Counted from the first letter of the stretch, positions 6,121 through 34,551 are shown. The stretch is DNA of 64,000 bases from Geminicoccus sp. (GCF_035556675.1 NZ_DATMFZ010000308.1:128-64127), one strand, 5' to 3'. The notes: generated from the sequence alone by a model not told the origin. Numbers and translations: made by a program.

Positions 6121-6219
6121 CGCTGGACGTCATCCCCGATCTTGGGCCCCGCAGGAGAATGATCTCGCCCGACCCGATTAACACCCGAGGGTGGCGGCAG
6201 AAACCGGCGAGGCGGGCGA

Positions 6220-7164
6220 TCAGCCCGTGCCGGCCGGCTGCCTGCTCCAGCTGCCGGCGATCGCCTGGACGAAGGTCGCCGCCAGGATCAGCATGCCGCC
6301 CAGCAGTACCGCCGGCGGCGGCACCTCCGCCACGACCAGCCACACCCACAAGGGCGAGAGGGCCAGTTCGGCCATGGCGACGAGCTGCAGCTGAGCCGCC
6401 GGCATGTGCCGCGCACCGCGCGTATAGCAGACCATGCCCAGGCCCAGCTGGACCACACCCATGGTCACGCACAAGGCGAGGTCGCGGCCGGTGACGGCGA
6501 AGCTGGCGCCGATGCCCCCGGCACTGCCGAGCAGGACCACCAGTGCCAGCAGGGAGGAGATCACGCCGGAGGCCAGGCTGGCCGGCAGCATGTCGCCCTG
6601 CCGGCCCCGGCGCAGAAAGAAGCTCATGAGCGCGAAGCAGATGGCGCTGCCCAGAGCCAGCAGGTTGCCGACCAGCCGGTCGAAGCTCACCGCACCCTCG
6701 ACCATCACCAGGATGCCGGCCATGGCCATGATCATCGCGACCCAGGTGATGACCGGGATGGGCTCCTTCAGGAACATCCGGCCGAGCAGGGCGGTGACGA
6801 AGGGCGCTATGCCGGACATGAAGAGCGCGTTGGCGACCGTGATGGTCTCGAGCGACAGGATGAACAGGACCAGCGTGCCGCTGGAGGCGGCACCGGCCAG
6901 GAGCGCGTCCCAGCCGGCCTCGCGGATCGCGGCCACCAGCCGATGGCGGTAGTGGATCGCGAGCAGGGCCAGCATGGTACCGGTGAGTGCCAGCGAGCGG
7001 TAGAAGATGATCTGCCAGCTCCCGGCCGCCTCCGTCAGCCGCACGAGCACCCCGGACAGGCTGAAGAAGCAGGTGGCCAGCACCACGAGCAGGACGCCCT
7101 GGCGATAGGCGGCGCTGTCCGGAACCGCCGCGAGCGCCGGGACGGCCTGTCGTCGGAGACTCAC
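6220..7164 (-). CDS. DMT-superfamily transporter (EamA/RhaT type)
   Basis: It is a ~10-TM hydrophobic protein with two EamA-like halves. I prefer the GTG at 7164, which overlaps the GNAT stop as GTGA, over the ORF-track start at 7188. Confidence 0.8.
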   Translation of the reverse strand: MSLRRQAVPALAAVPDSAAYRQGVLLVVLATCFFSLSGVLVRLTEAAGSWQIIFYRSLALTGTMLALLAIHYRHRLVAAIREAGWDALLAGAASSGTLVLFILSLETITVANALFMSGIAPFVTALLGRMFLKEPIPVITWVAMIMAMAGILVMVEGAVSFDRLVGNLLALGSAICFALMSFFLRRGRQGDMLPASLASGVISSLLALVVLLGSAGGIGASFAVTGRDLALCVTMGVVQLGLGMVCYTRGARHMPAAQLQLVAMAELALSPLWVWLVVAEVPPPAVLLGGMLILAATFVQAIAGSWSRQPAGTG

Positions 7165-7604
7165 AGCGGGATGTCGTACGTCACCCACTTCGTCTTGGTG
7201 CCCACCCGGTCGTAGACGCTGCGCGCGCGGTAGTTGTCCTCCGCCGTGATCCAGCGGATCACCGACCAGCCGCGCTTTCGGCCTTCCTCCGCAATCGCGG
7301 CGAAGATCGCCTGGGCAGCACCGGAGCCGCGGGCCTGGGGGTCGACGAACAGGTCGTCGAAGAAGCCGCCGGTGCTGGCGGCGAGCGGGCGGGCGAAGGG
7401 GCGAAAATGGGCCAGCGCAATCGGCTTGCCGCGGTCGTCCAGCGCCAGGAAGCCGGTCACCTCATGGTCCGGATCCTGCAGCCAGCCCCACACCCGGGCG
7501 CGCATCTCGGGCGTCTGCTCGACCTTGTAGAAGGCGGCGTAGGCCGCGTAGAGGCGCTCCCAGTCGTCCCGATGCTCCGGCGTGATCGGGACGATGCGGG
7601 TCAT
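7161..7604 (-). CDS. GNAT family N-acetyltransferase
   Basis: This is the C-terminal 147 aa of the long ORF 7161..9287. MTRIVPITPEHRDDWERLY...DLFVDPQARGSGAAQAIF is the acetyl-CoA motif A. Its ATG overlaps the HAD stop as ATGA. Confidence 0.85.
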   Translation of the reverse strand: MTRIVPITPEHRDDWERLYAAYAAFYKVEQTPEMRARVWGWLQDPDHEVTGFLALDDRGKPIALAHFRPFARPLAASTGGFFDDLFVDPQARGSGAAQAIFAAIAEEGRKRGWSVIRWITAEDNYRARSVYDRVGTKTKWVTYDIPL

Positions 7605-10287: not shown

Positions 10288-11139
10288 TCAGTGCTTGCGG
10301 ATCGCGAAGCCCACGCCGTAACCGGCGTCCGCGAAGGTCCAGGCGGAAAAGCGCGGGTCGTTCGCCACCTGCGTACGCCAGACCTCCGCCAGGCCCGGAT
10401 GGACCGGGTGGCTGACATCGTCGAACACCACCGCACCGCCCACGGCCAGATGCGGCAGGACGTCGGCCAGATCCTCGGCGGCACCGGGATCGGTGTGGTC
10501 GCCGTCCACGGTGATCAGGTCGAAATAGGTGCCTGGATTCTCGGTGAAATACTTCTTCACCGTCACATGGCTATTGCCGTCGATGAACTCGGCCTTGCCG
10601 GTATGGCCGACCTTCTTCAGCTCCGCCCGGACGAAATCCGGGCCAGGGTTTTCCATGCCGGCATAGTTCTTCATCCACATGTCGAACAGGACCACGTCGA
10701 CGCTAGGCGTCTGGCTCGCCACGGTGCAGACCGAGCGGCCGCGACGCACGCCGATCTCCAGGTAGCGCCGGGGCCTGAGTGCCTTGGACATGGTGAGCAG
10801 GACGGTGACGATGTCGGCATAGATCCAGTCGTCGCCGAAGCGCTTCAGGCCCTCGGTGTAGAACCGGGTGAGGTAGCGCGTGTAGTCGTCGGGCGAGAGC
10901 TTGCCCATGATCTCCAGCGCGTCTTTCAGCGTCGCGGCGGAGGCGGCATCGAGCGCGAAGGTCTCGGCGCCGGCCATGACCGGCGGATACCATTCGGTCT
11001 CGCCTGGTGCCGCGCTGTAGCAGACCGCCTCGCAGCGCGCCGCGTCCTTGCCATAGGCAGGCTTGGCCCAGGCGGCGCGTTCCTCGGGCGTGGAGACGGG
11101 GGTCTGGGCGGGCTGGGAACGGAACAGGCGCCGGATCAT
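10288..11139 (-). CDS. class I SAM-dependent methyltransferase (Methyltransf_24-like)
   Basis: YLEIGVRRGRSV is motif I. FDLITVDGDHTDPGAAEDL...GGAVVFDD is also present. The stop lies 2 nt before the next gene's start, and the ATG overlaps the upstream stop (ATGA). Confidence 0.8.
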   Translation of the reverse strand: MIRRLFRSQPAQTPVSTPEERAAWAKPAYGKDAARCEAVCYSAAPGETEWYPPVMAGAETFALDAASAATLKDALEIMGKLSPDDYTRYLTRFYTEGLKRFGDDWIYADIVTVLLTMSKALRPRRYLEIGVRRGRSVCTVASQTPSVDVVLFDMWMKNYAGMENPGPDFVRAELKKVGHTGKAEFIDGNSHVTVKKYFTENPGTYFDLITVDGDHTDPGAAEDLADVLPHLAVGGAVVFDDVSHPVHPGLAEVWRTQVANDPRFSAWTFADAGYGVGFAIRKH

Positions 11140-11804
11140 GCGGCAACGAACTCCTTGAGGTTGCGGACCGGCACGGCCGGGTTGCCGCTGGCGATGACGC
11201 CGGAGGGAAGGTCGGTGGAGACGACCGAGCCGCCCGCCACCACGGTATCGTCGCCGATCGTCACGCCCCGGAACACGATGGCGTTCATGCCGAGCCAGCA
11301 GCGTCGGCCAATGGTCACCGATGCATGGGCGATCCGATAGTCGGTGTTCTTCGACAAGCCCAGGATCTTCGCGAAGTGGCGCTCGCGCTCCTCCGCATCG
11401 ATCGGATGGGTGTTGTTGTCGAACACCTGCACGCCATGGGCGAACAGGGTGCCGTCGCCGATCTGGATGTGGTTCATCGCCGAGATCAGCACGCCGTCGC
11501 CGAAATAGCAGCGCTCGCCGACCGTGAGCCGGCCGGTGGGCTCCAGGCGCATGATCGCGCGGCTGACGGTGTGGCGGCCGATGCTGACGGCCTCGCGCTT
11601 GTTGCGGTTGACCAGCCGGGCGTCCAGGCCCAGCCGGATGTCCGGGCCCAGCTGGCCCGCCGCATGGAAGGAGCGCCAGACCGCCTGCAGCCGGCGTGCG
11701 GCGGCCAGCGAGCGCGTCATCTTGAAGGCGGCGAGGAAGCCGGACGGCTCCAGGAACACGGGCCCGTCGGCGAACGCATGGTCAAAGGGAGAGAGTGCCG
11801 GCAT
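11136..11804 (-). CDS. hexapeptide-repeat (LbH) acyl/acetyltransferase
   Basis: This is the C-terminal 222 aa of ORF 11136..13226, starting at the ATG at 11804. IGDGTLFAHGVQVFD...IGRRCWLGMNAIVFRGVTIGDDTVVAGGSVV is a left-handed beta-helix repeat, as in WcaF/LacA-type O-acetyltransferases. Confidence 0.8.
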   Translation of the reverse strand: MPALSPFDHAFADGPVFLEPSGFLAAFKMTRSLAAARRLQAVWRSFHAAGQLGPDIRLGLDARLVNRNKREAVSIGRHTVSRAIMRLEPTGRLTVGERCYFGDGVLISAMNHIQIGDGTLFAHGVQVFDNNTHPIDAEERERHFAKILGLSKNTDYRIAHASVTIGRRCWLGMNAIVFRGVTIGDDTVVAGGSVVSTDLPSGVIASGNPAVPVRNLKEFVAA

Positions 11805-11936
11805 GCGGCCTGGTGACCGTTCGCGAGGGGGTGGATCTTCGCCCAGGCGCCAAATGGTCGGCGCGGATGGCGTCTCATCGCGAGAGGTTCTAGACGGGCA
11901 CGGCAACCGGTTCAAGAACGCGAGTCTGTCCTGCTC

Positions 11937-12848
11937 ATGCGCCTGACCTGGCCGTTTGGCCGTGCCACGACCGGGGGCCCGCCGCCCCAGCCCCCGACGC
12001 CCCGGCCCGCGGCGACCGCGTACCGGCCGACCGACCTGTCGAAGATCTCGGTGGTGCTGGGCACGCTCGACCGGCTGCATCTGCTGGTACCCGCGATCGA
12101 GAGCGTGCGGGCGCAGCAGGTGGCGGCCGAAGTCGAGATCGTGGCGATCGACGGCGGCTCGACGGACGGGACGCTGCCCTGGCTCACCGCGCAGAAGGAC
12201 ATCATCACGATCGTCCAGCACAATCGCGGGGAATGGCAGGGCAGGCCTCTGCCGAAGCGCAGCTGGGGCTTCTTCATGAACCTCGCGTTTCGCGCGGCCA
12301 ATGCCGAGATCGTCTGCATGATCTCCGACGACTGCCTCGTGCTGCCGGGCGCACTCCAGGCGGGGCTGGACCGGCTGGCGGCGCTGGAAGCGAAGGGCGA
12401 GCGGGTAGGGGGGCTGGCCTTCCCGTTCCGCAACTGGCCGGACGACCAGCGCTTCTTCGTGGGCCGGACGCTGGGCGGGCGGATGATGGTGAACCATGGC
12501 TTCCTCTTGCGCCGGGCCATGGCGGATGTCGGCTGGATCGATGCCGAGGCGTACCGGTTCTACAAGGCCGACAGCGATCTCTGCCTGAAGATGTGGGACC
12601 GGGGCTGGTCGATTCACGACGTGCCGGACGCTCATGTCGAGCACTATGTCGATCCCGGCGAGGCGCTGAGGGTGCAGAACAACGCGACCATGGCCGCCGA
12701 CCGGGACGTGTACGTGCAGCGCTGGCAGGAGCTGGCGAAGCGGGAGCTGCCGTCGCGGCAGGAATATGACTGGCAGGATCCGGAAGGCACGGCCGACCGG
12801 GTGTTCGGGTCGATCCGGCAGCAGAGTCTGGAGGCGAGTGCGTCGTGA
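11937..12848 (+). CDS. family-2 glycosyltransferase
   Basis: ISVVLGTLDRLHLL...IVAIDGGSTDGT...MISDDC is GT2-like. The N-terminal ~30 aa are Pro-rich, so the true start may be later. Confidence 0.75.
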   Translation: MRLTWPFGRATTGGPPPQPPTPRPAATAYRPTDLSKISVVLGTLDRLHLLVPAIESVRAQQVAAEVEIVAIDGGSTDGTLPWLTAQKDIITIVQHNRGEWQGRPLPKRSWGFFMNLAFRAANAEIVCMISDDCLVLPGALQAGLDRLAALEAKGERVGGLAFPFRNWPDDQRFFVGRTLGGRMMVNHGFLLRRAMADVGWIDAEAYRFYKADSDLCLKMWDRGWSIHDVPDAHVEHYVDPGEALRVQNNATMAADRDVYVQRWQELAKRELPSRQEYDWQDPEGTADRVFGSIRQQSLEASAS

Positions 12849-14116
12849 GGATCGGGCTGCGCGTCCTGAGCAATCCCCTGTGGACCGGCGGCATCCACTA
12901 TGTGCTGGCCTGGGCCACCGCTTTGTCCCGCCTGCCGGCCATCGAGCGGCCAGAGGTCGTGCTGCTGGTGGCGGACGAGCGCGGCCAGCCGATCGCCGAG
13001 GCCAACCGGCACCTGGCGGCGGCGGTCGAGCCGTTCGACCGCGCGGCCAACCTCGACCTGGACTTGGTCTACTCGGCCACCCAGCTGTTCGAGGCGCCGA
13101 TCGGGGCACCCTGGGCCGGTTGGATCCCGGACTGGCAGTGCCGCTACCTGCCCGAATTGTTCGACCAGGCTGAGTACGCCCGGCGCGACCTGCATTTCCG
13201 GCTGCTGGCGACCCGAACACCGGCACTCGCCGTTTCCTCCGCGATGGCCGAGGCGGACACGCGCCGGATCGTCGGGGACGCCATGGTGCCGACCGTGCGC
13301 CTGCCCTTTCCGGCCCTGGTCGACCCGGCCGAGGTGGCGGCCCTGCCGCGCGCCGAGGAGGCGCCGGAGCGCTACCTGCTGATCTGCAATCAGTGGTGGC
13401 GGCACAAGAACCTGGAACTGCCGGTGGAAGCCCTGGCGCGCTGCCGGGACCGGACGGCCCGGCTGGTGTTCACCGGTGAGACCAAGGACCCGCGCTGGCC
13501 GGACAACGAGGCGCGGATCCGCGGGCTGATCGAGCGCCATGGCCTGGCCGGGCGCTGCCACGTGCTGGGCCGCATCCCGCGCATCACCCAGCTGGCCCTG
13601 CTGCGCGACTGCGTGGCCGTGATCCAGCCGTCCCGCTTCGAGGGCTGGAGCTCGGTGGTGGAGGAGGCCAAGGTCCTGCACCGCCCGCTGCTGCTGGCGG
13701 AGTTCCCGGTCCATCGCGAGCAGGCGCCGGATGCCCGCTTCTTCGGCGCGGACGACCCGGACGCGCTGGCGCAAGCGATGGACGATGCCTGGGCCGGCCG
13801 GATCGAGCCGGTCCCGTTCGACGCCGAGGCCAACGTGCTGGCCTGCGCCAGGCGGCTGGTCGACCTGGCCGGCATCACCCGCCAGCGCTACGACCCGCAG
13901 CGCCACGACCCGGCCGTGCTGCTGCCGGAGTTCGAGCGGGAGCTGGACCGGCTGGCCGCGGATCCGGCGATGGCCGACCTGGTCCAGCGCCAGCGGGGTG
14001 CCGTGCATGCCCTGCGCCGGCGGGTGGCCGCGGTGGCCGCCGACCGGCCGGTGCCGGTGGCGGCGGCACCCTCCGTGCTCGGGCGGCTGAAGGGCTGGCT
14101 GTCAGGCCGCCGCTGA
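12845..14116 (+). CDS. GT-B glycosyltransferase (GT1/GT4, Glycos_transf_1-like)
   Basis: The GTG start overlaps the GT2 stop (GTGA). PSRFEGWSSVVEEA is the E-x7-E motif of retaining GT4 enzymes. Confidence 0.75.
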   Translation: MRIGLRVLSNPLWTGGIHYVLAWATALSRLPAIERPEVVLLVADERGQPIAEANRHLAAAVEPFDRAANLDLDLVYSATQLFEAPIGAPWAGWIPDWQCRYLPELFDQAEYARRDLHFRLLATRTPALAVSSAMAEADTRRIVGDAMVPTVRLPFPALVDPAEVAALPRAEEAPERYLLICNQWWRHKNLELPVEALARCRDRTARLVFTGETKDPRWPDNEARIRGLIERHGLAGRCHVLGRIPRITQLALLRDCVAVIQPSRFEGWSSVVEEAKVLHRPLLLAEFPVHREQAPDARFFGADDPDALAQAMDDAWAGRIEPVPFDAEANVLACARRLVDLAGITRQRYDPQRHDPAVLLPEFERELDRLAADPAMADLVQRQRGAVHALRRRVAAVAADRPVPVAAAPSVLGRLKGWLSGRR

Positions 14117-15814
14117 GGCCGGCTCGGCGTCGTGCAGGCCCAGCGTCTCGGCCGGGTAGACGAACGGGCTGCCGTTCAGGATGCCGTCGCAGATCACGTC
14201 CAGGCCCGGATGGTGGCCCGGCATCAGCTCCTCCAGGCTGGTGATGCCCAGGTCGTACATGGCCTTGGACTTGGACGGCACCAGGAAGGGCAGCGGCAGC
14301 ATCCGCCGGAAGAAGAAGTGGTAGGCGTACATCCGGGCCCGGCGGACCGTCGCCGCGTCCAGGCGGCGGCCGAACGGCAGCCCGCCCAGGATCTCGCGAT
14401 AATGCTCCACCGAGCGGGCGTCGGTGGTGAGGCCCTTGTTGCGGATCCAGGCCTCGCCCGCGACGATCACCGGGATGCCCAGCGAGGTCAGCTCCACGCC
14501 GGTCTTGGTGCCGTACACGATCGCCGAATCGCACAGCAGCATGGCCGCATAGGTGCTGACCTGCTCCTCCGGCCCGATCACGTGGACGTTGGGCGGCAGC
14601 ACCGGGAAGACCTTGGCGATCTCTTCCACCGCCTTCTGCCGGGCCGGCACCGTGCCGCGGATCTCGGCCGGGTGGACCCGAATCAGGAGCTGCAGCTCCG
14701 GGTGCTCGGCGAACCAGCGCACCGTCTCGATCAGCCAGGCCCCCATGTTGGGGAAGGCGTTGGCCGGGTAGTGGAGCTGGGCGTCCCAGAACACGTTGGT
14801 CAGGCAGCCGATGATCGGCTTGTTCCGGTCGATCTTGCGCTCGTTGATGAGCTTCTCGACATCCTCGTCGGGCTTCTCGTGGAACCAGATCCAGTCGCGC
14901 GTGCCGGACCAGCGACTCTTGAGATAGTCGACGATCAGCTGCTCCTGCGCGTCGTCGAACGGCAGGTTCTCCCACTCGGACACCGGCTCGTCCATGAGCG
15001 TGTGGTGATAGGTGTCGTGGTGGCTGAAGATGAAGCAGTTCTTGCGATACGCCGCGACCCAGTTGGCGACATGGACGCCCTGCCGGCGGCAGGCCTCGCC
15101 GACGATGCCCTGCGGCACGTAGATGCCGTGGTGGAAGGCGGCGGCGTCGATCCGCTCCTTCGCGAACAGCGCCTTCATGGCAAACGCGGTGATCAGCGAT
15201 GCCTCGAAATAGCGGCGCAGCACCGGCTCGCCCAAAGGCTCGTTCTCGAGCGTGCCGCGGGCGAAGAAGCGCAAGGCACCGGCCTTGGCATGGTCGCCCA
15301 CCGCCATGCCATCCAGCACGTAGGTCGGGATCTGGTCGGCCGGGAGGGTCTCGGCGAGACGGCGTGCCTCGGCCTTGGCCCGGTCGTCGCATAATGTGCC
15401 GAGCGTGTGGTGCTCGATCGGCAGCTGCTCGAACACCATCGAGCCGGTCTTGAAGCAGTGCTTGCACAGCCGCTCAGCCAGACGCCGGTCGACCAGGTCC
15501 TCCGGTCCCTTGAGATTGGTCCACATCGCCTGCAGGCAGCCGGGCAGGGCTGCATCACATAGGAGATGGTGGACTTTGGCGCCACGCAGTGCCAGGGAGA
15601 CCGCGAGCACGCTTTCCAGCAGGGTCACCAGGGCGTGGCCGCCGGTGTTGGTGGCGATCAGGACCGACTTGCCCTTGTGCGACCGGCGTGTGGCCCGCTC
15701 CCACAAGGCGCGGTCCTTCTCGATCAGGCTGGCCCAGTCGACCAGGGCACCCTGGGCGGCGGCACGGATCGGGGCCGCCTCGGCCTTGAGCCGGCGGAAC
15801 AGGCGCTGCAGCAA
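14102..15814 (-). CDS. capsule polysaccharide biosynthesis protein (Capsule_synth / KpsC-KpsS-like)
   Basis: This is the C-terminal 570 aa of ORF 14102..16603. I place the start at TTG 15814, 9 nt after a GGAG, because no in-frame ATG or GTG is nearby. LIATNTGGHAL..., LIRVHPAE (HP motif) and VYGTKTGVELTSLGIPVIVAG resemble KpsS/KpsC-type ulosonic-acid transferases. The family call is from memory. Confidence 0.65.
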   Translation of the reverse strand: MLQRLFRRLKAEAAPIRAAAQGALVDWASLIEKDRALWERATRRSHKGKSVLIATNTGGHALVTLLESVLAVSLALRGAKVHHLLCDAALPGCLQAMWTNLKGPEDLVDRRLAERLCKHCFKTGSMVFEQLPIEHHTLGTLCDDRAKAEARRLAETLPADQIPTYVLDGMAVGDHAKAGALRFFARGTLENEPLGEPVLRRYFEASLITAFAMKALFAKERIDAAAFHHGIYVPQGIVGEACRRQGVHVANWVAAYRKNCFIFSHHDTYHHTLMDEPVSEWENLPFDDAQEQLIVDYLKSRWSGTRDWIWFHEKPDEDVEKLINERKIDRNKPIIGCLTNVFWDAQLHYPANAFPNMGAWLIETVRWFAEHPELQLLIRVHPAEIRGTVPARQKAVEEIAKVFPVLPPNVHVIGPEEQVSTYAAMLLCDSAIVYGTKTGVELTSLGIPVIVAGEAWIRNKGLTTDARSVEHYREILGGLPFGRRLDAATVRRARMYAYHFFFRRMLPLPFLVPSKSKAMYDLGITSLEELMPGHHPGLDVICDGILNGSPFVYPAETLGLHDAEPASAAA

Positions 15815-15988
15815 GGACGGAAACTCCAGACGCCCATGAACCGGACGCGAGGGGGGAATTGATGTCCGCCTAGGATCATGCGATAGGCGCGCTGTCAATC
15901 GCGCCGGACACGCCCAGGTAGAATTGCCGCTCCGGGTGCCTTGCGGCCGGCGCGTGCGACCCGATGAGAGATCGAGAGTCCCCCGTCC

Positions 15989-16879
15989 ATGGCAGTCATC
16001 CAGTCGCCGCGTCAGGACCAGACGCAGCAGACTCTCGTGATCGAGCACAAGAGCGTGGCGGACCTCGCCACGATGTGGCGGGACCTGTGGGCGTACCGAC
16101 ACCTGATCCGCTATCTGGCCGGCCGCGAACTCAAGGGCCGCTACCGTGCCTTCACGCTCGGGCGCGCCTGGTTCCTGATCAAGCCGCTCTCGGAGATGCT
16201 GGTCTACGTGCTGATCTTCGGGCTGGTCCTGAAGCTGCACCGCGGCAGCCTGCCCTACCCGCTGCACGTCTATACCGGCCTGATCGCCTGGCTGTTCTTC
16301 GCCGGGGCGGCCACCCGCGTGTCCTCCAGCTTCACCAGCTATCGCGGGATGATGACCAAGGTCTACTTCCCGCGCCTGGTCCCGCCGATCGTGGCGCTGG
16401 TGGTGGAGTTCGCCGACATGGCGGCGGCCTTCGCCTTCGGCGTGCTGATGATGGCGACCTACATCCTGGTGCCGGGCCTGCTGGGTGAGGGTGAGAGCGC
16501 CACGCCAGGGATCGGCCTCGTCACCTTGCCGCTCTGGCTGCTCCTGCTGGTGATCTGGACTGCGGGCGTCGGCCTGTTCGCGGCGTCGCGGAGCGTCAAG
16601 CATCGCGACGTCGGCATGATCCTGGCCATCTTCATGCGGGTCTGGATGTACACCGCACCGGTGATCTACCCGATCGCCTTCATTCCGGAGCGCTATCTCT
16701 GGCTCTACCGGATGAACCCGATCGCGGTGATCATCGAGGGCTTCCGCGCGTCGCTGACCGGCCAGGCCCTGCCGCCGCTCACGGCGATCCTATGGACCTT
16801 CATCACCGGAATGTGCCTCCTGGCCTACGCCCTGTTCCTGTATCGCCGCACCGAACGCGACATCGTCGACCACTTCTGA
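15989..16879 (+). CDS. wzm: ABC-2 type polysaccharide export permease
   Basis: It has 6 TM segments. RELKGRYRAFTLGRAWFLIKP and the MNPI...IEGFR signature are typical of Wzm/KpsM/TagG permeases. Confidence 0.9.
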   Translation: MAVIQSPRQDQTQQTLVIEHKSVADLATMWRDLWAYRHLIRYLAGRELKGRYRAFTLGRAWFLIKPLSEMLVYVLIFGLVLKLHRGSLPYPLHVYTGLIAWLFFAGAATRVSSSFTSYRGMMTKVYFPRLVPPIVALVVEFADMAAAFAFGVLMMATYILVPGLLGEGESATPGIGLVTLPLWLLLLVIWTAGVGLFAASRSVKHRDVGMILAIFMRVWMYTAPVIYPIAFIPERYLWLYRMNPIAVIIEGFRASLTGQALPPLTAILWTFITGMCLLAYALFLYRRTERDIVDHF

Positions 16880-19800
16880 TGACCCAGCCCGCCATCGAGG
16901 TCCAGAACCTCGGCAAGAGCTATGTCCTCAACCGCAAGAGCGGCGAGGCAGCCAACCGCACCGTCTGGGTCCTGAACGACATCTCGTTCAAGGCCGAGCC
17001 CGGCGACGTGATCGGCATCATCGGCAAGAACGGGGCCGGCAAGTCCACCCTGCTCAAGATCCTGGCCCGGATCACCGAGCCCACGCGCGGCAAGGCGATC
17101 ATCCGCGGCCGGGTCGCCAGCCTGCTCGAGGTCGGCACCGGCTTCCACGACGAGCTGTCGGGCCGCGAGAACGTGTTCATGAACGGCACGCTGCTGGGCA
17201 TGACCCCCACCGAGGTGCGCAAGCGCTTCGATGAGATCGTCGCCTTCTCCGGGGTCGAGCGCTACATCGACCAGCCGGTGAAGCACTACAGCTCGGGCAT
17301 GCGGGTGCGCCTGGCCTTCTCGGTCGCGGCCCATCTCGACCCGGAGGTCATGTTCATCGACGAGGTGCTCTCGGTCGGCGACATGGAGTTCCAGGACCGC
17401 TGCCTGAAGCGGATGAACCAGCTCACCACCGAGTTCGGCCGCACCGTCCTGTTCGTCAGCCACAACATGAACGCGGTGGCGACCCTGTGCCCCCGCGCCC
17501 TGCTCCTGAACCAGGGCAAGTGCGTGGCGCTGGGTCCGACCGGCGAGGTCATCAAGCAGTATCACGGCCTGGTCCACGGCATCAAAGAGAAGCGGGGCCT
17601 GGCCGAGCGCGAGGACCGTACCGGTGCCGGCGGCGTGCGCTTCCTGGAGGTCCAGATCCAGGACGGCAGCGGCAAGCCGGTCGAGTTCGCCCGTTCCGGT
17701 ACGCCGCTGCGCCTGGCGCTGCGCTACCGCTTCGACGCCGATACCCCCTTGAGCGACCGGGTGACGCTCAACGTCGCCTTCAACAATGCCCGCGGCCAGC
17801 GGCTGTTCGCGACGCCCTCGGACCTGATGGGCAAGGTGGACGGCAAGGTCGCGCGCGAGGGCTGGTGCTTCGTCGAGATCCCCAAGCTGCCGCTGATGCC
17901 CGGCCGCTACGAGATCGACATCGCCTTCCAGATCGACCGGCTGACCCTGGACAAGGTCGCGGGTGCCGCGGTGGTGCCGGTGGTGGAGGGGCCGTTCTAT
18001 CCGACCAACCGGCTGCCCAACAGCCTCTCGGGCGACCTGCTGGTGGACTATGAGTGGTCCCTGTCGACCGGAGCCAGCCTGCCGGCCAAGCCGAAGCCCA
18101 AGCCGGCGCCGGCCCGCGTGGAGGTCGGCAAGGAGCCGATCGCCGGGCAGCTCCAGGCGATGGCGGCACCGGTCAATGTCCTGGAAAAGAATGCCCGCGA
18201 GCTGCTGGAACAGGCCGTGCCCGAGGCGGACCGGCATCAGCAGCTGACCGGCGAGGCCGAGGCGGGCGAAGCCCGGCTGGCGGCGCTGCGTTCCCTCCTG
18301 CCTGCCGGCGATGACGCCAGCCTGCAGGTCGCCGACCGGCTGGCCGCCGCGTTCGGCCGCATCCGGCGCCACCTCGCCGAGGCGGAGCTGGCGGCACTGC
18401 TGGGCGTGGCCGTGCCGGCCGTGGTCCATGAACGCGGCCTGCCGGTCGACGACCCGCGCATCGCCATGCGTGACCAGCCGGGACCGGCCATCGCGGAGTT
18501 CGGCAAGCCGGTCGTGGGCCTCGCCGCCTTCGTCAACCAGGCCATGGCCGCCTGGCAGAGCCAGGAGCGCCAGCGCCAGCGCCAGGCCCTGGAGATCATA
18601 GCGGCGCGCGCCAGCGCCTATCTGGAACGGGCCGATGCCATTCTGGCCCGGGCACCCGAGGACCCGACCGGCCAGAACGTCCACCGGCAGGTGACGACCC
18701 GGCTGCGCGAGATCCTGCACCACGTCGCATTCCTTCAGGCGGCCCCGGCGGACGCCACGCCCGAGGACCTGAAGCGCAGCTGGCTGAGGGCCAGGGCCGC
18801 GCGGGAGGAGGTGCTGCGCGCGCCCAGCGAGGTGCCGGACCAGCCGAATCAGCCGCTCCAGACCCGGCTGGCCCGGATCGCCCCGGCGGTGAACGCGCTG
18901 GAGAAGGCGAGCGCCGCACTGGTGACCCAGGCCCAGCCGATCGATCCGGCGCGCCATGGCCAGCTGCGGCAGTGGGCGGAAGGTTTCGCCGGGCGGGTGG
19001 CCGCCCTGCGCGCCCAGGCCGGCGAGAGCGATCACCACCCGATCCGGATGGCCGGCGAGCTGGCCGCGGCGCTGGGCCGGGCGCGGCAGAACCTGGACGA
19101 TGTCGAACTCCCGATGCTGCTGGGGGTGCCGGTGCCGGGCGGTGGCCTGGGCCGCGACCTCGCCGCAGACGATCCGCGGCTGGCGGAGCGCGCCACGGCA
19201 GGCGCCACCATCGCCGAGTTCTCCCGCCCGGCGGTGCTGCTCACCGAGCATGTCGAGCATGCCCTGGCCCATTGGCAGGGCAGCGACCCGCAGCGCCAGG
19301 CCATGGCGATCGTCGCGGGACGGGCGCGCGGCTTCCTGGCCCGCGCGGACGAGCTTCTGGCGAGTGCTGCGGCCGATACCGATGCGATCGATGTCCACAA
19401 CCAGGTGACGCTCCGGCTGAAGGACGTGCTGGACTGGGCGGAATACCTGCGCAATGCACCAGCCGGTGCGGGGGCCGGCGCGGAACCCCTGTTCGCCGCT
19501 TGGCAGAGGGCCTCGCGGGTGCGCGAGCTGCACCTCTCGCAGATCTTCCAGGGCATCGAGGCGGTGAGCGTGCCGATCGGCGCCATCAACCAGGAAAGCG
19601 CCCACGAGAACCAGGTCGACCTGCTCTATGTCTCGGCGATCGCCAAGGCGATCGGGGCTAGGCGGATGTTCGAGGTCGGCACCTATATGGGCCGCACCAC
19701 CTGGCATCTGGCGGCGCTCGCCCCCGACGTGCAGGTATGGACCCTGAACCTGCCGCCGGAGGCCGATCCGCGCATCGCACCCGTGCTGGGCTCCTATTAC

Positions 19801-20148
19801 CGCGGCAAGCCGGAGGCGGCCCGGATCCACGAGCTGTGGACCGACAGCAAGACCTTCGAGCCCGGCGAGCTGGCCGGCACGATGGACTTCGTGTTCGTCG
19901 ATGCCGATCACAGCTACGACGCGGTCATGGCCGACACCGAGCGCGCCCTGAAGCTGGTACGGCCCGGCGGGGTGGTGCTCTGGCACGACTATGCCGCGAA
20001 ATCGCCGGGCGTGGTGCGCTTCGCCCACGATTTCGCAAAGGCGCGGCCGCTGTTCCGGATCAAGCACACCTGCCTGCTCTGCCTGATCGAGGGTGTGGAT
20101 GCGGAGAGTTTCCAGCCCTACCCGATGCGCCGCGGCCTGGGCGACTGA
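16879..20148 (+). CDS. wzt: Wzt-type polysaccharide ABC ATPase fused to Wzt_C-like carbohydrate-binding domain, duplicated helical spacer and C-terminal SAM methyltransferase
   Basis: The ATG at 16879 overlaps the wzm TGA by 1 nt. Walker A is GKNGAGKST, the signature is YSSGMRVRLAF, Walker B is VMFIDEVLSVGD and the H-loop is FVSHN. Next comes GVRFLEVQIQDG...GRYEIDIAF (beta-sandwich, Wzt_C-like) and a PKPKPAP linker. Then there are two homologous ~230-aa repeats. The C-terminal part has FEVGTYMGRTT...FVFVDADHSY...GGVVLWHDY, which is Methyltransf_24-like. Confidence 0.9.
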   Translation: MTQPAIEVQNLGKSYVLNRKSGEAANRTVWVLNDISFKAEPGDVIGIIGKNGAGKSTLLKILARITEPTRGKAIIRGRVASLLEVGTGFHDELSGRENVFMNGTLLGMTPTEVRKRFDEIVAFSGVERYIDQPVKHYSSGMRVRLAFSVAAHLDPEVMFIDEVLSVGDMEFQDRCLKRMNQLTTEFGRTVLFVSHNMNAVATLCPRALLLNQGKCVALGPTGEVIKQYHGLVHGIKEKRGLAEREDRTGAGGVRFLEVQIQDGSGKPVEFARSGTPLRLALRYRFDADTPLSDRVTLNVAFNNARGQRLFATPSDLMGKVDGKVAREGWCFVEIPKLPLMPGRYEIDIAFQIDRLTLDKVAGAAVVPVVEGPFYPTNRLPNSLSGDLLVDYEWSLSTGASLPAKPKPKPAPARVEVGKEPIAGQLQAMAAPVNVLEKNARELLEQAVPEADRHQQLTGEAEAGEARLAALRSLLPAGDDASLQVADRLAAAFGRIRRHLAEAELAALLGVAVPAVVHERGLPVDDPRIAMRDQPGPAIAEFGKPVVGLAAFVNQAMAAWQSQERQRQRQALEIIAARASAYLERADAILARAPEDPTGQNVHRQVTTRLREILHHVAFLQAAPADATPEDLKRSWLRARAAREEVLRAPSEVPDQPNQPLQTRLARIAPAVNALEKASAALVTQAQPIDPARHGQLRQWAEGFAGRVAALRAQAGESDHHPIRMAGELAAALGRARQNLDDVELPMLLGVPVPGGGLGRDLAADDPRLAERATAGATIAEFSRPAVLLTEHVEHALAHWQGSDPQRQAMAIVAGRARGFLARADELLASAAADTDAIDVHNQVTLRLKDVLDWAEYLRNAPAGAGAGAEPLFAAWQRASRVRELHLSQIFQGIEAVSVPIGAINQESAHENQVDLLYVSAIAKAIGARRMFEVGTYMGRTTWHLAALAPDVQVWTLNLPPEADPRIAPVLGSYYRGKPEAARIHELWTDSKTFEPGELAGTMDFVFVDADHSYDAVMADTERALKLVRPGGVVLWHDYAAKSPGVVRFAHDFAKARPLFRIKHTCLLCLIEGVDAESFQPYPMRRGLGD
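18160..19540 (+). repeat. in-frame tandem duplication of a ~220-240-aa helical module inside wzt
   Basis: Copy 1 (~18160-18877) reads APVNVLEKNARELL...RLAAAFGRIRRHLAEAELAALLGVAVP...DDPRIA...IAEFGKPVV...ERADAILA...VHRQVTTRLREIL. Copy 2 (~18878-19540) reads APAVNALEKASAAL...ELAAALGRARQNLDDVELPMLLGVPVP...DDPRLA...IAEFSRPAV...ARADELLA...VHNQVTLRLKDVL. I aligned them by eye and the boundaries are approximate. Confidence 0.7.
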
Positions 20149-20303
20149 CCATGACGACAGCCGGTCTTCCTCGACAGGATCGTCCATGACAGTTGTTCGA
20201 GGCCGTTCAGGACGCTACCAGATCGCACCCGCGACGCGCCCAGATTTCGTGCAGACAGGAAGCCGCGACGCGGTTGCGCCGTTCGCCTTGCTTGGAGTGG
20301 TCG

Positions 20304-21359
20304 ATGTCTCGTGAGCTCGTCATCGCCGGTCGGCGCATCGCCGATGATACCGATACCTATGTGATCGCCGAGGTGGGACACAACCACCAGGGCAGCGTCG
20401 AGAAGTGCAAGGAAATGATCGACGCCGCGGTCGCGTGCGGCTGCGACGCGGTGAAGCTGCAGAAGCGCGAGAACCGCTCGCTGTTCACCAAGTCGATGTA
20501 CGAGAGCAGCTACAACTCCGAGAATGCCTTCGGCTCGACCTATGGCGAGCATCGCGAGGCCCTGGAGTTCGACGACAAGCAGTATGTCGAGCTGGCGAAC
20601 TACTGCAAGCAGAAGGGCATCGCCTTCTTCTCGACCGCGTTCGACTTCGAGAGCGCCGATTTCCTGAACGCGCTGGACATGCCGGCCTTCAAGATCGCGT
20701 CCGGCGACATCATCAACACGCCGCTGCTCGAATATGTCGCGAAGCTCGGCAAGCCGATGATCGTGTCCACCGGTGGCGCCACCATGGACGACGTGAAGCG
20801 GGCCTACGAGACGATCATGCCGATCAACCGGCAGCTCGCGATCCTGCAGTGCACCGCGGGCTACCCGCCGGCCTGGGAGGAGCTGAACCTCCGGGTGATC
20901 GAGACCTTCCGTAACGCCTTCCCCGACATCGTGATCGGCTTCTCCAGCCACGATTCCGGGATCGCCATGCCGCTGCTCGGCTACGCGCTGGGCTCGCGCA
21001 TGGTGGAGAAGCACTTCACCCTCGACCGGACCATGAAGGGCACCGACCACGCCTTCTCCCTGGAGCCGGTCGGCATGCGCAAGCTGGTGCGTGACCTCAA
21101 GCGCGCCCGGGTCGCCATGGGCGACGGGGTGAAGAAGCAGTACCCGTCGGAAGAGAAGCCGCTGTTCAAGATGGCGAAGAAGCTGGTGGCTGCCCGCGAC
21201 CTGCCAGCGGGCCATGTGCTGACCCGCGAAGACATCGCAATCAAGTCGCCGAACGACGGCCTGCCGCCGCACCAGATGAACGTGGTGATCGGCCAGAAGC
21301 TGACGGCGGCGCTGGCAGCGGACGACAACATCACGCTCGAAGGCCTCGCCCGTGCGTGA
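20304..21359 (+). CDS. NeuB-family ulosonic/nonulosonic acid synthase (N-acetylneuraminate synthase family, with SAF domain)
   Basis: The ATG at 20304 follows a GGAG. YVIAEVGHNHQGS, AVKLQKR, FKIASGDI and ILQCTAGYP are present, plus a C-terminal SAF-like domain. Substrate specificity cannot be read from the sequence. Confidence 0.9.
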   Translation: MSRELVIAGRRIADDTDTYVIAEVGHNHQGSVEKCKEMIDAAVACGCDAVKLQKRENRSLFTKSMYESSYNSENAFGSTYGEHREALEFDDKQYVELANYCKQKGIAFFSTAFDFESADFLNALDMPAFKIASGDIINTPLLEYVAKLGKPMIVSTGGATMDDVKRAYETIMPINRQLAILQCTAGYPPAWEELNLRVIETFRNAFPDIVIGFSSHDSGIAMPLLGYALGSRMVEKHFTLDRTMKGTDHAFSLEPVGMRKLVRDLKRARVAMGDGVKKQYPSEEKPLFKMAKKLVAARDLPAGHVLTREDIAIKSPNDGLPPHQMNVVIGQKLTAALAADDNITLEGLARA

Positions 21360-22170
21360 TCCGCTGTTCGACCTGGCCGGGCGCGTCGTGATCGTCACCG
21401 GCGCGCTGGGCCAGCTCGGCAGCGCCTATGCGGCAGCCTTGGTGGAGAGGGGGGCGAAGGTCGCCCTCCTCGATCGTCATGACGACATTTCCCACCTGCC
21501 GGCCGGCCTGCAACAGGCGTGCGCCGATGGCCGCGCCCTGGCCCTGGCGGCGGACGTCACCGACCGGGAGGCCCTCCAGGCAGCGCTGCGGCGGATCGAG
21601 GACCGGCTCGGCACCCCCTCCGGCCTGATCGCCAACGCGGCGCTGGACAGCCCGCCGAATGCGCCTGCGTCGGAGAACGGGCCGTTCGAGGACTACCCGG
21701 TCGAATCGTTCCGCAAGGTGCTGGACGTCAACGTCACCGGCGTCATGCTGTGCTGCCAGGTGTTCGGCGGCGCCATGGCGAAGGCCGGCCAGGGCTCGAT
21801 CGTGCTGATCGGCTCGATCTACGGCGTGGTCTCGCCCGACCAGTCGATCTACGAGTACCGGCGCAGCGAGACCGAGACCTTCTTCAAGCCGGTGGCCTAT
21901 TCGGCCAGCAAGTCGGCGCTCTACAACCTGACCCGCTATCTCGCGACCTACTGGGCGGGCAAGGGCGTGCGGGTGAACAGCGTGACGCTGGCCGGCGTGT
22001 TCGCCGACCAGGACCCGCGCTTTCTCGAAGGCTACCTGAAGAAGATGCCGCTCGGCCGGATGGCGGAGCCTGACGACTATGTCGGGATCATGGTCTATCT
22101 GCTCTCCGACGCATCGCGCTATGCGACGGGCGCCGAGTTCCGCATCGACGGGGGCTGGACCGCCTGGTGA
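21352..22170 (+). CDS. SDR family oxidoreductase
   Basis: The GTG start overlaps the end of the NeuB-family gene by 8 nt. VIVTGALGQLG is the TGxxxGxG motif and YSASKSAL is YxxxK. Confidence 0.85.
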   Translation: MRDPLFDLAGRVVIVTGALGQLGSAYAAALVERGAKVALLDRHDDISHLPAGLQQACADGRALALAADVTDREALQAALRRIEDRLGTPSGLIANAALDSPPNAPASENGPFEDYPVESFRKVLDVNVTGVMLCCQVFGGAMAKAGQGSIVLIGSIYGVVSPDQSIYEYRRSETETFFKPVAYSASKSALYNLTRYLATYWAGKGVRVNSVTLAGVFADQDPRFLEGYLKKMPLGRMAEPDDYVGIMVYLLSDASRYATGAEFRIDGGWTAW

Positions 22171-22224: not shown

Positions 22225-22476
22225 ATGGCGACGATCCTGGTGCGCAATGTCGATGACGCGGTGGTCGAGCGCCTCAAGGCGCAGGCGAAGGAGCACGGCC
22301 GGTCGATGGAAGCCGAGGTCCGTGCGCTACTGACCGAGGCGGCAGGTCCACCAGGGGACCTCACTGGTGAGGCACTATGGGAGTTTCTGCGCAGCGGTCC
22401 GAAGGTGACTGAGGACTTCGAACTGGACATCCCTGACGACTACTCGATCCCTCCGAACCCGTTCGAAGACGAATGA
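22225..22476 (+). CDS. vapB: ribbon-helix-helix antitoxin (FitA/VapB, Arc/plasmid-stability type)
   Basis: MATILVRNVDDAVVERLKAQAKEHGRSMEAEVRALL is a typical RHH N-terminus. The product is 83 aa. Its stop overlaps the toxin ATG (ATGA). Confidence 0.85.
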   Translation: MATILVRNVDDAVVERLKAQAKEHGRSMEAEVRALLTEAAGPPGDLTGEALWEFLRSGPKVTEDFELDIPDDYSIPPNPFEDE

Positions 22477-22907
22477 ACTACATCCTCGACACCAACGTCG
22501 TGTCGGAGATGATGCGACCTCAGCCTGACGTCCATGTGCATAGCTGGGTAACCCGAAAGGTACTTTCACAGCTTTTCGTTACGGCGACGACGATCAACGA
22601 GATCACCTTCGGCCTTCAACGTCTGCCTGCGGGACGTCGTCGGCAGGAACTTCAGGTCCACCTGAATGATCTGGTCAATCGACGCTTCGCGGGCCGGATA
22701 TTGCCGTTCGACAAGGCAGCTGCTGTACGCTGTGGCGAGATCCGTGCTGCAGCAATGATGCGTGGCCGTCCCGCAGGATTTGCCGATGCGGAGATCGCCG
22801 CCGTCGCACTTACCCATTCCATGACCGTCGCCACCCGCGACCTGGACGACTTCGCCGTGTTCGGCGTTCCCCTCGTCGACCCGTTCGATCCGAAGGCAGT
22901 AGCATGA
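22473..22907 (+). CDS. vapC: type II toxin, PIN-domain ribonuclease (VapC/FitB)
   Basis: MNYILDTNVVSE carries the first PIN acidic residue. ATRDLDDF and the 144-aa length also fit. Confidence 0.9.
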   Translation: MNYILDTNVVSEMMRPQPDVHVHSWVTRKVLSQLFVTATTINEITFGLQRLPAGRRRQELQVHLNDLVNRRFAGRILPFDKAAAVRCGEIRAAAMMRGRPAGFADAEIAAVALTHSMTVATRDLDDFAVFGVPLVDPFDPKAVA

Positions 22908-33645: not shown

Positions 33646-34551
33646 TCAGCCTTCCTCGCCGCCCACCAGCCCCAGGAACCGGTCGAGCTGGTCGAGCGTG
33701 CGCCAGCGCACCACCAGTTCGCCACCATCCTTCTTCTGCCGGATCGCGATCGGCAGGCCGAAGCGTCGGGATAGCCGCTCCTCGAACGCCTTCACGTCGG
33801 CATCCACGGCGGGACGGTCGACAGACTTGGCCGGCTTGGCTGTCTGCTGACGACGCACCAGATCTTCCGTCTGCCGGACATTCAGCCCGTCGCGGACGAC
33901 GATCTCGGCCAGTGCTGCCGGATCGGCCGCCCCCAGCAGCGCCCGGGCATGACCGGCGCTGATCTTCTCCTGGTCGAGCAGGTGCCGTACCGGCTCGGGC
34001 AGGCCCAGCAGTCGGATGGTATTGGCGACATGGCTGCGGCTGCGGCCGAGCGCGCTGGCAATGTCCTCCTGGGTATGGCCGAACTCGTCGGCCAGCCGCC
34101 GATAGGCATCGGCCTCTTCCAGCGGGGTGAGGTCCTTGCGCTGGACGTTCTCGACCAGCGCGATCTCCAGCGTCTCCTGCTCGCCCAGCTCGCGGACCAG
34201 TACCGGGACCTCGGCCAGCCCGGCGCGCTGCGCCGCCCGCCAGCGCCGCTCCCCGGCGACGATCTCGAACCCGTCAGCCCGGCCGGCCGGGCGCACCAGC
34301 AGCGGCTGGAGCAGGCCGTGCCGGCGCATCGAATCCGCCAGCAGCTCCAGTTCGTCCTCGTCGAACCCGCGCCGCGGCTGGTGGCGCGACGGCGAGAGCT
34401 GCTCGATCGGCACCAGCCTGGCACCCTTGGGCGCCGGCTTGGCCGCCTGCGGCTCGCTGTCGAGAATCGTGCCGGCATCCTCGCCGAGCAGGGCGGAGAG
34501 CCCCATGCCCAGCCCACGCCGCCTGCCAGGCGTCTGATCGGAATGCTTCAC
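33646..34551 (-). CDS. parB: chromosome partitioning protein ParB
   Basis: GLGMGLSALLGE, the LVRP...FEIVAGERRWRAA ParB box and the HTH SALGRSRSHVANTIRLL are present. The GTG start overlaps the parA stop (GTGA). Confidence 0.95.
   Translation of the reverse strand: MKHSDQTPGRRRGLGMGLSALLGEDAGTILDSEPQAAKPAPKGARLVPIEQLSPSRHQPRRGFDEDELELLADSMRRHGLLQPLLVRPAGRADGFEIVAGERRWRAAQRAGLAEVPVLVRELGEQETLEIALVENVQRKDLTPLEEADAYRRLADEFGHTQEDIASALGRSRSHVANTIRLLGLPEPVRHLLDQEKISAGHARALLGAADPAALAEIVVRDGLNVRQTEDLVRRQQTAKPAKSVDRPAVDADVKAFEERLSRRFGLPIAIRQKKDGGELVVRWRTLDQLDRFLGLVGGEEG

Follow-up and report, generated by a model that had tools for sequence, protein, structure and literature searches.

A Geminicoccus Wzt exporter ATPase fused, through a duplicated orphan helical domain, to a predicted O-methyltransferase: chain capping probably tethered to the exporter

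Within a 64,000-nucleotide stretch of DNA from Geminicoccus sp. (GCF_035556675.1, NZ_DATMFZ010000308.1:128-64127), analysed as a whole and called the window below, a glycan cluster encodes a protein of 1089 amino acids (aa) in which Wzt, the ATPase of an ABC-transporter-dependent polysaccharide exporter, is fused to an O-methyltransferase. From its N-terminus the protein comprises an ABC nucleotide-binding domain (NBD), a Wzt_C carbohydrate-binding module (CBM), a disordered linker, two helical modules and a Methyltransf_24 O-methyltransferase (MTase), which is the order given by an earlier annotation made from the bare DNA (the sequence-only reading), and its three Pfam domains all score above curated cut-offs. 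We suggest that Geminicoccus probably caps its chains with an enzyme tethered to the exporter and, with somewhat more confidence than doubt, that the tethered MTase caps the glycan while the CBM of the same Wzt reads the cap and so licenses export. In the textbook ABC-transporter-dependent O-antigen pathway, terminator and exporter are separate machines, linked by the chemical cap alone. Natural Wzt-CBM/MTase fusions of at least two origins argue that capping occurs on the transporter in some lineages.

A bona fide Wzt in one unbroken reading frame

With the NBD motifs in place, a Wzt_C domain after the NBD and a Wzm permease encoded next to it, the N-terminal part of the protein reads as a bona fide Wzt. 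ABC_tran (PF00005) lies at aa 32-163 (E 2.6e-19), and the Walker A (GKNGAGKST), signature (YSSGM) and Walker B (VMFIDE) motifs can all be read; the NBD matches the NCBIfam Wzt/RfbE and TagH-type models at E 1e-55, and in the PDB the N-terminal 418 aa find as their best match the full-length Wzt of Aquifex aeolicus, carbohydrate-binding domain (CBD) included (8DKU/7K2T; E 5e-66, aa 27-350). Wzt_C (PF14524) occupies aa 245-368 (E 1.9e-13; 51 bits vs a cut-off of 30.4 bits), and the AlphaFold2 (AF2) model places beta strands at 253-370. HMM searches thereby support both folds on which the sequence-only reading depended, that of Wzt_C and, through PF13578, that of the methyltransferase. The linker after the CBM, STGASLPAKPKPKPAPARVEVGKEP, contains AKPKPKPAPA, the PKPKP stretch that had been picked out before; AF2 predicts it to be disordered (pLDDT <50 over aa 398-418), and it shares 29% identity with its counterpart in Geminicoccus roseus.

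The open reading frame (ORF) is stop-free and, as previously claimed, single, unbroken and coupled to wzm: in the TGATG junction the last base of the wzm TGA stop (16877-16879) is also the first base of the wzt ATG (16879-16881). A third-position G+C (GC3) of 0.90 marks the + strand as coding, in a window of 69% G+C. By the same measure we rejected an antisense ORF of 1120 aa facing wzt (16825-20187, -) as non-coding, an artefact of high-GC composition; long antisense or over-extended ORFs (16825-20187, 11136-13226 and 14102-16603, all -) are typical for DNA of 69% G+C. NCBI holds a protein 100% identical to the fusion, from a Geminicoccus sp. metagenome-assembled genome (MAG), under the title 'ATP-binding cassette domain-containing protein', and full-length orthologues are intact in the isolate assemblies of G. 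roseus (L001), G. flavidas (L009) and G. harenae (L010) as well as in several metagenome contigs. The splitting stop or frameshift that the sequence-only reading had named as one refuting outcome is thus absent from three cultured species and from the metagenome contigs. Against G. flavidas, dN/dS (Nei-Gojobori) is 0.03 in the NBD, 0.10 in the CBM, 0.05 in the MTase, and 0.19 and 0.18 in modules 1 and 2. The whole polypeptide, spacer included, is selected coding sequence under purifying selection and not a merged artefact. The coordinates of its parts and of its neighbours are collected in Table 1.

Table 1. Positions of the wzt fusion, its domains and neighbouring genes in the window.
Feature	Position	Strand	Basis
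wzt fusion ORF, whole, stop codon included	16879..20148	+	uninterrupted translation
ABC nucleotide-binding domain, aa 1-235	16879..17583	+	PF00005, PDB Wzt match, motifs
Wzt_C carbohydrate-binding module, beta-sandwich, aa 240-397	17596..18069	+	PF14524, AF2 strands, PDB alignment
Pro/Lys/Ala-rich disordered linker, aa 398-420	18070..18138	+	sequence, pLDDT, low conservation
Helical module 1, orphan helical-bundle domain, aa 421-654	18139..18840	+	internal duplication, AF2
Helical module 2, aa 655-880	18841..19518	+	internal duplication, AF2 module model
Pre-MTase segment and class I cation-dependent O-methyltransferase, aa 881-1089	19519..20145	+	PF13578, PF01596, motifs
Divergent (mosaic) block vs G. 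harenae, linker and both modules	18040..19440	+	DNA identity, dS
wzm, ABC-2 permease partner	15989..16879	+	PF01061 ABC2_membrane E 6.9e-16
Second, standalone Methyltransf_24, 283 aa	10288..11139	-	PF13578 E 5.6e-15
GT2, candidate polymerising enzyme	11937-12848	+	Pfam; syntenic in G. roseus
GT1, candidate polymerising enzyme	12845-14116	+	Pfam; syntenic in G. roseus
Conserved protein of ~570-580 aa, divergent from wzm, start uncertain	14102..15850	-	weak PF05159 match, E 0.025
NeuB-family ulosonic-acid synthase and SDR, directly 3' of wzt	20193..22170	+	PF03102 E 3.8e-82

A C-terminal methyltransferase of the Methyltransf_24 family

The final 209 aa are predicted to be a Mg2+-type class I O-methyltransferase and fall in a distinct subfamily of Methyltransf_24. 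PF13578 itself is matched at aa 932-1038 (E 3e-14) and Methyltransf_3 (PF01596) at E 4.6e-5, and the motifs for S-adenosylmethionine (SAM) and the DxD motif are intact, so that the Methyltransf_24-like C-terminal domain proposed earlier stands. SAM motif I (EVGTYMGRTT) aligns with EVGVFTGYST of SafC (5LHM), a solved cation-dependent O-methyltransferase, and the metal-binding DxD(K/H) motif (FVDADHSYD) with FIDADKESYD of the same structure; the equivalents of D254, D256 and H257 are invariant across 20 standalone homologues. The alternating beta and alpha elements of a Rossmann fold appear at 929-1070 in the AF2 model. From these intact, invariant motifs we predict an enzyme that looks active. 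It is preceded by a conserved pre-MTase segment, LHLSQIFQGIEAVSVPIGAINQESAHENQVDLLYV, at which the hhalign match to standalone MTases starts. Those homologues, about 85 in number and 270-360 aa long, share 45-56% identity with the fused MTase, and the source records name them just 'predicted O-methyltransferase YrrM'.

The resemblance to WbdD, the capping enzyme on which the sequence-only reading had modelled the protein, does not extend to homology. Matches in the PDB at E<=1 are to O-methyltransferases like COMT and CCoAOMT, with no WbdD chain among them; Pfam finds no kinase domain in the fusion protein; and at the C-terminus, where WbdD-type proteins carry a membrane helix and polymerase-recruitment site, there is the MTase domain itself. 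The fusion protein is therefore outside the WbdD family, having an MTase of another family and neither kinase, coiled coil nor C-terminal anchor, although it may work in a WbdD-like manner in the topological sense, by analogy of anchor, spacer and distal enzyme.

The methyltransferase is paired with Wzt beyond Geminicoccus

In related clusters the same enzyme stands beside wzt as a separate gene. A standalone orthologue of the MTase directly follows a wzt with CBM in a Bradyrhizobium shewense-type contig (L003), in Tardiphaga (L004) and in two metagenome contigs (L008 and L013), and lies one gene, a Methyltransf_21 (MT21), away in a Nitrospirae MAG (L005). The wzt of these five unrelated split loci is of normal size (422-447 aa, ABC_tran and Wzt_C), and the loci share with Geminicoccus the Capsule_synth-like protein, an acyltransferase, the second Methyltransf_24 (MT24), an epimerase, the glycosyltransferases GT1/GT2 and NeuB. 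Because the MTase adjoins wzt in such clusters, we read the Geminicoccus protein as a fusion of neighbouring wzt and MTase genes.

The fusion has happened more than once. A second wzt::MTase protein of 783 aa (P0008), independent in origin and recent, is encoded at 4881-7232 of a metagenomic locus (L007) whose close relative (L013, 4365-6721) keeps a wzt of 447 aa and an MTase of 331 aa apart by a 17-bp gap, between the same flanks, and the P0008 MTase is 92% identical to the standalone MTase of that relative. The pair makes a natural fused-versus-split comparison. In P0008 the spacer, a short 2x33-aa repeat, is the standalone enzyme's own N-terminal repeat region, and in a tree of MTase domains (neighbour-joining, without bootstrap) P0008 falls among the standalone enzymes, distant from the Geminicoccus clade; since it nests with standalone MTases and away from Geminicoccus, the wzt-MTase fusion arose at least twice.

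The CBM, too, keeps company with the enzyme. Compared with the CBMs of Wzt proteins that are paired with or fused to this MTase subfamily, the CBM of the window scores 98-130 bits (36-43% identity), against 43-76 bits for ten other Wzt_C proteins, a small and unsystematic set, while NBD identity is 50-61% for these ten controls vs 49-55% for the MTase-paired Wzt. That CBM similarity follows the MTase subfamily argues, at the level of sequence, for what would be expected if CBM specificity tracks the product of the MTase. Together, adjacency, fusion and CBM co-variation argue for a functional pairing of Wzt and MTase, which would most simply be one of cap-writer and cap-reader. Of the sequence-only reading's composite picture, then, one part is supported, namely that exporter ATPase, cap reader and capping-type MTase are joined and would act jointly (as adjacency, the second fusion and CBM co-variation suggest), and another is not, namely the coiled-coil ruler between them.

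The helical modules are an orphan domain family

Between linker and MTase the protein carries an internal duplication (aa 419-654 vs 655-914, 43% identity over 228 aa, E 1e-37), and the two homologous helical modules of ~230 aa each that had been noticed before are real. An AF2 model from an alignment of 12 module copies (pLDDT 87.4, pTM 0.82) predicts an antiparallel bundle with seven main helices of 16-30 residues and one short helix, the connections being short save for one conserved 25-residue loop. In the full-length model (pLDDT 72, pTM 0.37), module 1 has its helices at 421-643 (pLDDT ~80-88) and module 2 at 660-878, followed by the Rossmann-fold MTase; flexible joints are seen as disordered segments at 398-418 and 644-659 and a low-confidence one at 900-912. 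Both models are of monomers and were built on shallow alignments (8 and 12 rows). Prolines recur every 20-30 residues through the spacer. Bounded from helix lengths, the end-to-end distance of a module would be at most about that of one helix, ~4-5 nm; 230 aa arranged as a coiled coil would span ~34 nm.

According to the models, then, the spacer is a pair of helical bundles on flexible joints and not a continuous coiled coil, since the predicted helices do not exceed 30 residues, the joints are disordered and the prolines are so spaced. On the same grounds we discarded a long coiled-coil reading. To the question raised earlier, whether residues ~430-890 form a coiled coil or helical rod, AlphaFold answers that they are helical, but the model has bundles with disordered joints in place of an extended rod, and the ruler-like coiled coil is not supported.

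The module has no relative that we could find. Among 1.84 billion (1.84e9) representative proteins, a profile search gave 4 matches, all to the same protein or its fragments; genome and metagenome scans met the module in Geminicoccus only; and Foldseek against the PDB reached a best E of 0.04 with TM <=0.31, its candidates (14-3-3, translin and plectin repeats) being generic all-alpha folds from which nothing usable followed. Spectrin-like halves inside the module were likewise rejected, hhalign of the N-half vs the C-half finding no sub-repeat (probability 2.7%), as was an origin of the spacer from the N-terminal extension of standalone MTases: set against 20 of these with hhalign, the module profile matches in its last 29 columns only, and these columns are the conserved pre-MTase segment. 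We therefore have a new domain family under selection, and one with no known fold relative.

Its conservation is unevenly placed. Across the 12 module copies, which are ~40-60% identical, 13 columns are invariant and ~30 more nearly so; the conserved positions are often charged or polar, many lie within the 25-residue loop, and the motifs LLGVxVP, DDPR, RP and W..G..QR.A recur. These polar motifs argue for a role beyond that of a passive spacer. We propose, following the models, that the modules are a jointed tether or scaffold keeping the MTase away from the NBD and CBM.

Copy number varies, there being two modules in Geminicoccus, one in P0007 and none in P0008. P0007 is a metagenomic orthologue of 853 aa in a syntenic locus, and its single module is nearer to module 2. 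Across orthologues each module groups with its positional counterpart, first with first and second with second, from which it follows that the duplication is older than the split of the Geminicoccus species. Module lengths are kept (<=5 gap columns) despite fast sequence divergence. In the standalone MTases motif I begins anywhere between residues 66 and 202, and a VEVGRTLN repeat is present in 0, 1 or 2 copies.

The spacer also has a history of its own. Compared with G. harenae (L010), the locus is 94-100% identical in DNA from ~14.1 to 24.0 kb, except at ~18040-19440, where identity drops to 70-82% in a block with sharp boundaries that coincide with the linker and both modules. In this block dS is ~0.6, vs 0.05-0.16 in the NBD, CBM and MTase, a rise that rules out relaxed selection as a simple explanation; the comparison with G. 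flavidas shows uniform divergence. The pattern suggests that the spacer segment was replaced by recombination relative to G. harenae. Copy-number variation and mosaic evolution together provide a natural experiment on whether glycan length depends on how the spacer is built.

The surrounding glycan cluster

The cluster is syntenic with that of G. roseus and holds, besides the genes of Table 1, a HAD phosphatase, an epimerase-GT2 fusion, a hexapeptide acyltransferase and an aldehyde dehydrogenase. Its standalone MT24, which is conserved in related clusters, is just 29% identical to the fused MTase over 127 aa, and the notion that the fused enzyme is its duplicate was dropped on that account. 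Behind the 696-aa ORF at 11136-13226(-), the real gene is the C-terminal ~214 aa, the hexapeptide acyltransferase at 11136-~11780. In the same way the 833-aa ORF at 14102-16603(-) overlaps wzm, and its true start must be later, giving the protein of about 570 aa listed in Table 1.

Orthologues of this ~570-aa protein occur in eight loci (L001, L003-L008 and L013), that of L005 matching Capsule_synth, and the protein is present in every related wzm-wzt-MT24 cluster; it bears a Cys-rich motif, CDAALPGCLQ...CKHCF, and matches nothing in the PDB or NCBIfam. It is a possible novel Capsule_synth-like glycosyltransferase or terminator. Considered as an alternative terminator, it yields a weak Capsule_synth match (E 0.025) and no more. 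No obvious candidate for a coiled-coil terminator was seen among the other cluster proteins.

Directly downstream of wzt, the NeuB-family gene (20193-21359, +) scores below the NCBIfam equivalog cut-offs for the N-acetylneuraminate and pseudaminic acid synthases (NeuB/PseI), and it is followed by a gene for a short-chain dehydrogenase/reductase (SDR). Because the orthologues of G. roseus and L006 are 351 aa long, the TTG start at 20193 is probably ~37 codons early and the true start near 20304. The transketolase and CMP-sugar synthetase present in related clusters were not seen within the glycan cluster of the window. In G. roseus an extra FkbM-type MT21 gene (L001, 13303-14058) lies between wzt and neuB, without counterpart in the ~45 bp (20148-20193) of the window, and in L004, L005 and L008 MT21 genes flank the MT24 gene.

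Two further observations concern genes of other kinds. A PIN-domain toxin gene (22473-22907, +) sits inside the glycan cluster, between the SDR and the aldehyde dehydrogenase; in G. roseus a FitA-like RHH antitoxin gene precedes it, for which ~22225-22476 is the corresponding place in the window. Farther along, parB (33646-34551) and mnmG/gidA (35970-37829) lie close together (region 33646-37829, -) with two ORFs between them, possibly parA and rsmG/gidB. Such an arrangement of parB and mnmG is often found near the chromosomal replication origin.

Proposed mechanism

A CBM on Wzt is the mark of systems whose export needs a terminal modification, methyl and methyl-phosphate groups being among the known caps (PMC11231755, PMC11127046). 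In Geminicoccus we envisage that the GT1, GT2 and Capsule_synth-like enzymes of the cluster would build the glycan on undecaprenyl diphosphate, on the cytoplasmic side of the membrane, and that the tethered MTase would then O-methylate the non-reducing terminal sugar of the lipid-linked chain. This methylation would stop elongation, or make the epitope to which the CBM on that Wzt dimer binds, or both, and export would thereby be licensed. The fusion would thus set the cap-writer upon the cap-reader and exporter, so that termination takes place at the transporter, with the helical modules serving as a jointed tether or scaffold and not as a rigid coiled-coil ruler of the WbdD type. Four elements of this scheme are what we infer: the substrate of the MTase, its role as terminator, the specificity of the CBM for a methylated end and the effect of the spacer on chain length.

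Several considerations weigh against such a scheme. The capping role of the MTase is predicted from fusion, adjacency and co-variation, and the cluster has other candidate cap-makers, namely the second MT24, the MT21 of G. roseus, and the NeuB-family synthase with the Capsule_synth-like protein, which could provide an ulosonic-acid cap; the fused MTase could therefore be a decorating enzyme. Its family differs from that of the WbdD methyltransferase, and the control set in the CBM comparison is limited in the way described. The AF2 models, of monomers on shallow alignments, bound the dimensions of the spacer from helix lengths only.

Alternative explanations

The other candidate cap-makers lead to an alternative that we hold to be unlikely but a serious rival: the MTase would methylate internal residues, or a cap sugar contributed by another enzyme, and the fusion would co-localise a late modification with export. 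The added sugar might be an ulosonic acid made by way of NeuB, with the ~570-aa Capsule_synth-like protein as its transferase. NeuB, the Capsule_synth-like protein and two or three methyltransferases are constant members of the cluster and its relatives, CMP-sugar synthetase and transketolase are usual across them, and Wzt-CBM is also found fused to GT2 domains and other enzymes that are not of terminator type. Kdo caps end the chains of Klebsiella O4 and O12 (PMC11231755). In favour of capping by the fused enzyme, on the other hand, this MTase subfamily is the one that repeatedly adjoins or joins wzt and that co-varies with the CBM, to be read with the qualifier that in L004, L005, L008 and G. 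roseus an MT21 is likewise a neighbour of wzt or of this MTase; and the standalone MTases bear an N-terminal helical extension, a hallmark accessory of terminators.

A second possibility concerns the modules and is compatible with capping by the tethered MTase. By analogy with the WbdA-recruitment region of WbdD, they might bring the polymerising glycosyltransferases to the transporter, or dimerise its two arms there, which we regard as on the unlikely side and yet in keeping with the concentration of invariant and nearly invariant columns, many of them charged or polar, in the 25-residue loop, with a module dN/dS (0.18) that means real constraint, and with a confidently modelled globular fold. 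Neither the profile search nor Foldseek, however, detected homology or structural similarity to known interaction domains, and the related systems, P0008 and all the split loci, function without the module.

We also think unlikely the stronger form of the sequence-only reading, in which the duplicated helical region is a true molecular ruler whose physical length sets the modal chain length, so that module number (none or a short spacer, one, two) would give stepped lengths and the protein would be a complete terminate-measure-recognise-export machine. An anchor in the form of Wzt at the membrane, then a spacer, then a distal catalytic domain fits the logic of WbdD (PMC11231755); natural variants of the spacer exist, from two modules in Geminicoccus through one in P0007 to the 2x33-aa repeat of P0008; module length is conserved where sequence diverges fast; and the spacer behaves as an exchangeable cassette in the comparison with G. 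harenae. What tells against it is the modelled geometry set out above, with short-helix bundles that would each span a small part of the coiled-coil length, three flexible or low-confidence joints and frequent prolines, and also the polar loop motifs, which point to a part in binding or folding more than to a passive spacer. Finally, the idea that a frameshift or stop loss in one assembly joined separate wzt, unknown and MTase genes, a general hazard of MAG data with otherwise nothing to commend it, is effectively refuted and vanishingly improbable, because three cultured species, each sequenced independently, and several metagenomes have the same unbroken ORF, which is under codon-level purifying selection along its whole length, with GC3 as given.

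A bolder version of tethered capping would make the protein a self-contained terminate-recognise-export machine in which a lineage-specific helical domain, varying in copy number and swapped by recombination, serves as a modular ruler or scaffold. We consider this quite improbable, but if it were true, the swapping and duplication of modules would tune polysaccharide chain length by a ruler principle unlike that of the WbdD and WbbB coiled coils, and this would show directly that terminators work in physical contact with the exporter. Whichever the case, a system in a single polypeptide is suited to cryo-EM and to the reconstitution of capping-coupled export, and G. roseus can be grown in culture. 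In practical terms the reach is limited, given an obscure organism, an uncharacterised glycan and the frequency of similar fusions in metagenomes.

Comparison with known systems

Among the closest known systems is the WbdD/Wzt-CBM system of Escherichia coli O9a/O8 (Klebsiella O3/O5), which, as we propose for Geminicoccus, combines ABC-transporter-dependent assembly with a C-terminal CBM on Wzt. There the CBM admits capped chains only and the cap is made by SAM-dependent methylation, for which the Geminicoccus protein has matching predicted parts, and in WbdD, as by prediction in the fusion, a helical region keeps a catalytic domain of terminator type away from an anchor near the membrane. WbdD differs in being a separate protein with an MTase (with or without kinase) of another family. 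An extended coiled coil forms its spacer, and its C-terminus binds the membrane and recruits the polymerase, whereas the Geminicoccus spacer is modelled as two orphan bundles on flexible joints; the anchor in the fusion is Wzt itself, and there is no kinase.

The closest characterised precedent for uniting a CBM and a terminator in one chain is ORF6 of Klebsiella pneumoniae O7, which consists of an MTase-kinase, a CBM, a coiled coil and two glycosyltransferase modules; unlike the fusion described here, ORF6 is joined to the polymerase and not to the transporter ATPase, has a coiled coil, and leaves Wzt separate (PMC11231755). ORF6 serves as a precedent for the way in which the distribution of modules among proteins varies across these pathways (PMC11231755). 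WbbB of Klebsiella O12 and Raoultella terrigena likewise unites several functions and a helical spacer in one protein, in a system in which the Wzt-CBM reads the terminal residue, but its terminator is a beta-Kdo glycosyltransferase, it contains the polymerase, a coiled coil makes up its spacer and the exporter is another protein. The Wzm-Wzt of Aquifex aeolicus (7K2T, 8DKU) has the same arrangement of NBD and CBD; its Wzt ends after the CBD (404 aa), without spacer or enzyme domain. In the split clusters of Bradyrhizobium shewense, Tardiphaga sp. and the Nitrospirae MAG, the MTase is of the orthologous subfamily, the CBM is related and genes are shared, while wzt and MTase are separate and the MTase has an N-terminal helical extension of ~15-150 aa in place of the 230-aa modules.

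The sequence-only reading knew of no characterised example of such a protein, and in the literature searched we likewise found no account of a Wzt-terminator fusion or of this family of clusters; an earlier bioinformatic mention is possible. The census of Mann, Kimber & Whitfield (2019), which is reported to cover systems unlike the established prototypes, may include fusions of this sort. The architecture as such is not unique, fusions of NBD, Wzt_C and an enzyme being common in metagenomes. Among Wzt relatives of other design we observed a protein of 906 aa (P0010) with about four tandem Wzt_C-like CBM repeats and two in which an enzyme precedes NBD and CBM, an asparagine synthase in P0061 and a sulfotransferase in P0054. 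The order NBD, Wzt_C, enzyme recurs in metagenomic fusions with Methyltransf_23/11/25 (P0021, P0049, P0071), an FkbM MTase (P0046), a sulfotransferase (P0037) and a GT2 (P0041), which differ from the Geminicoccus protein in that their enzymes are of unrelated families, their linkers measure ~50-140 aa and a duplicated helical domain is missing. In the literature searched, no characterised example of these fusions turned up. The class in which an NBD and Wzt_C are joined to a modifying enzyme is therefore not new, and what is special in Geminicoccus is the duplicated orphan insert of ~460 aa that stands between them.

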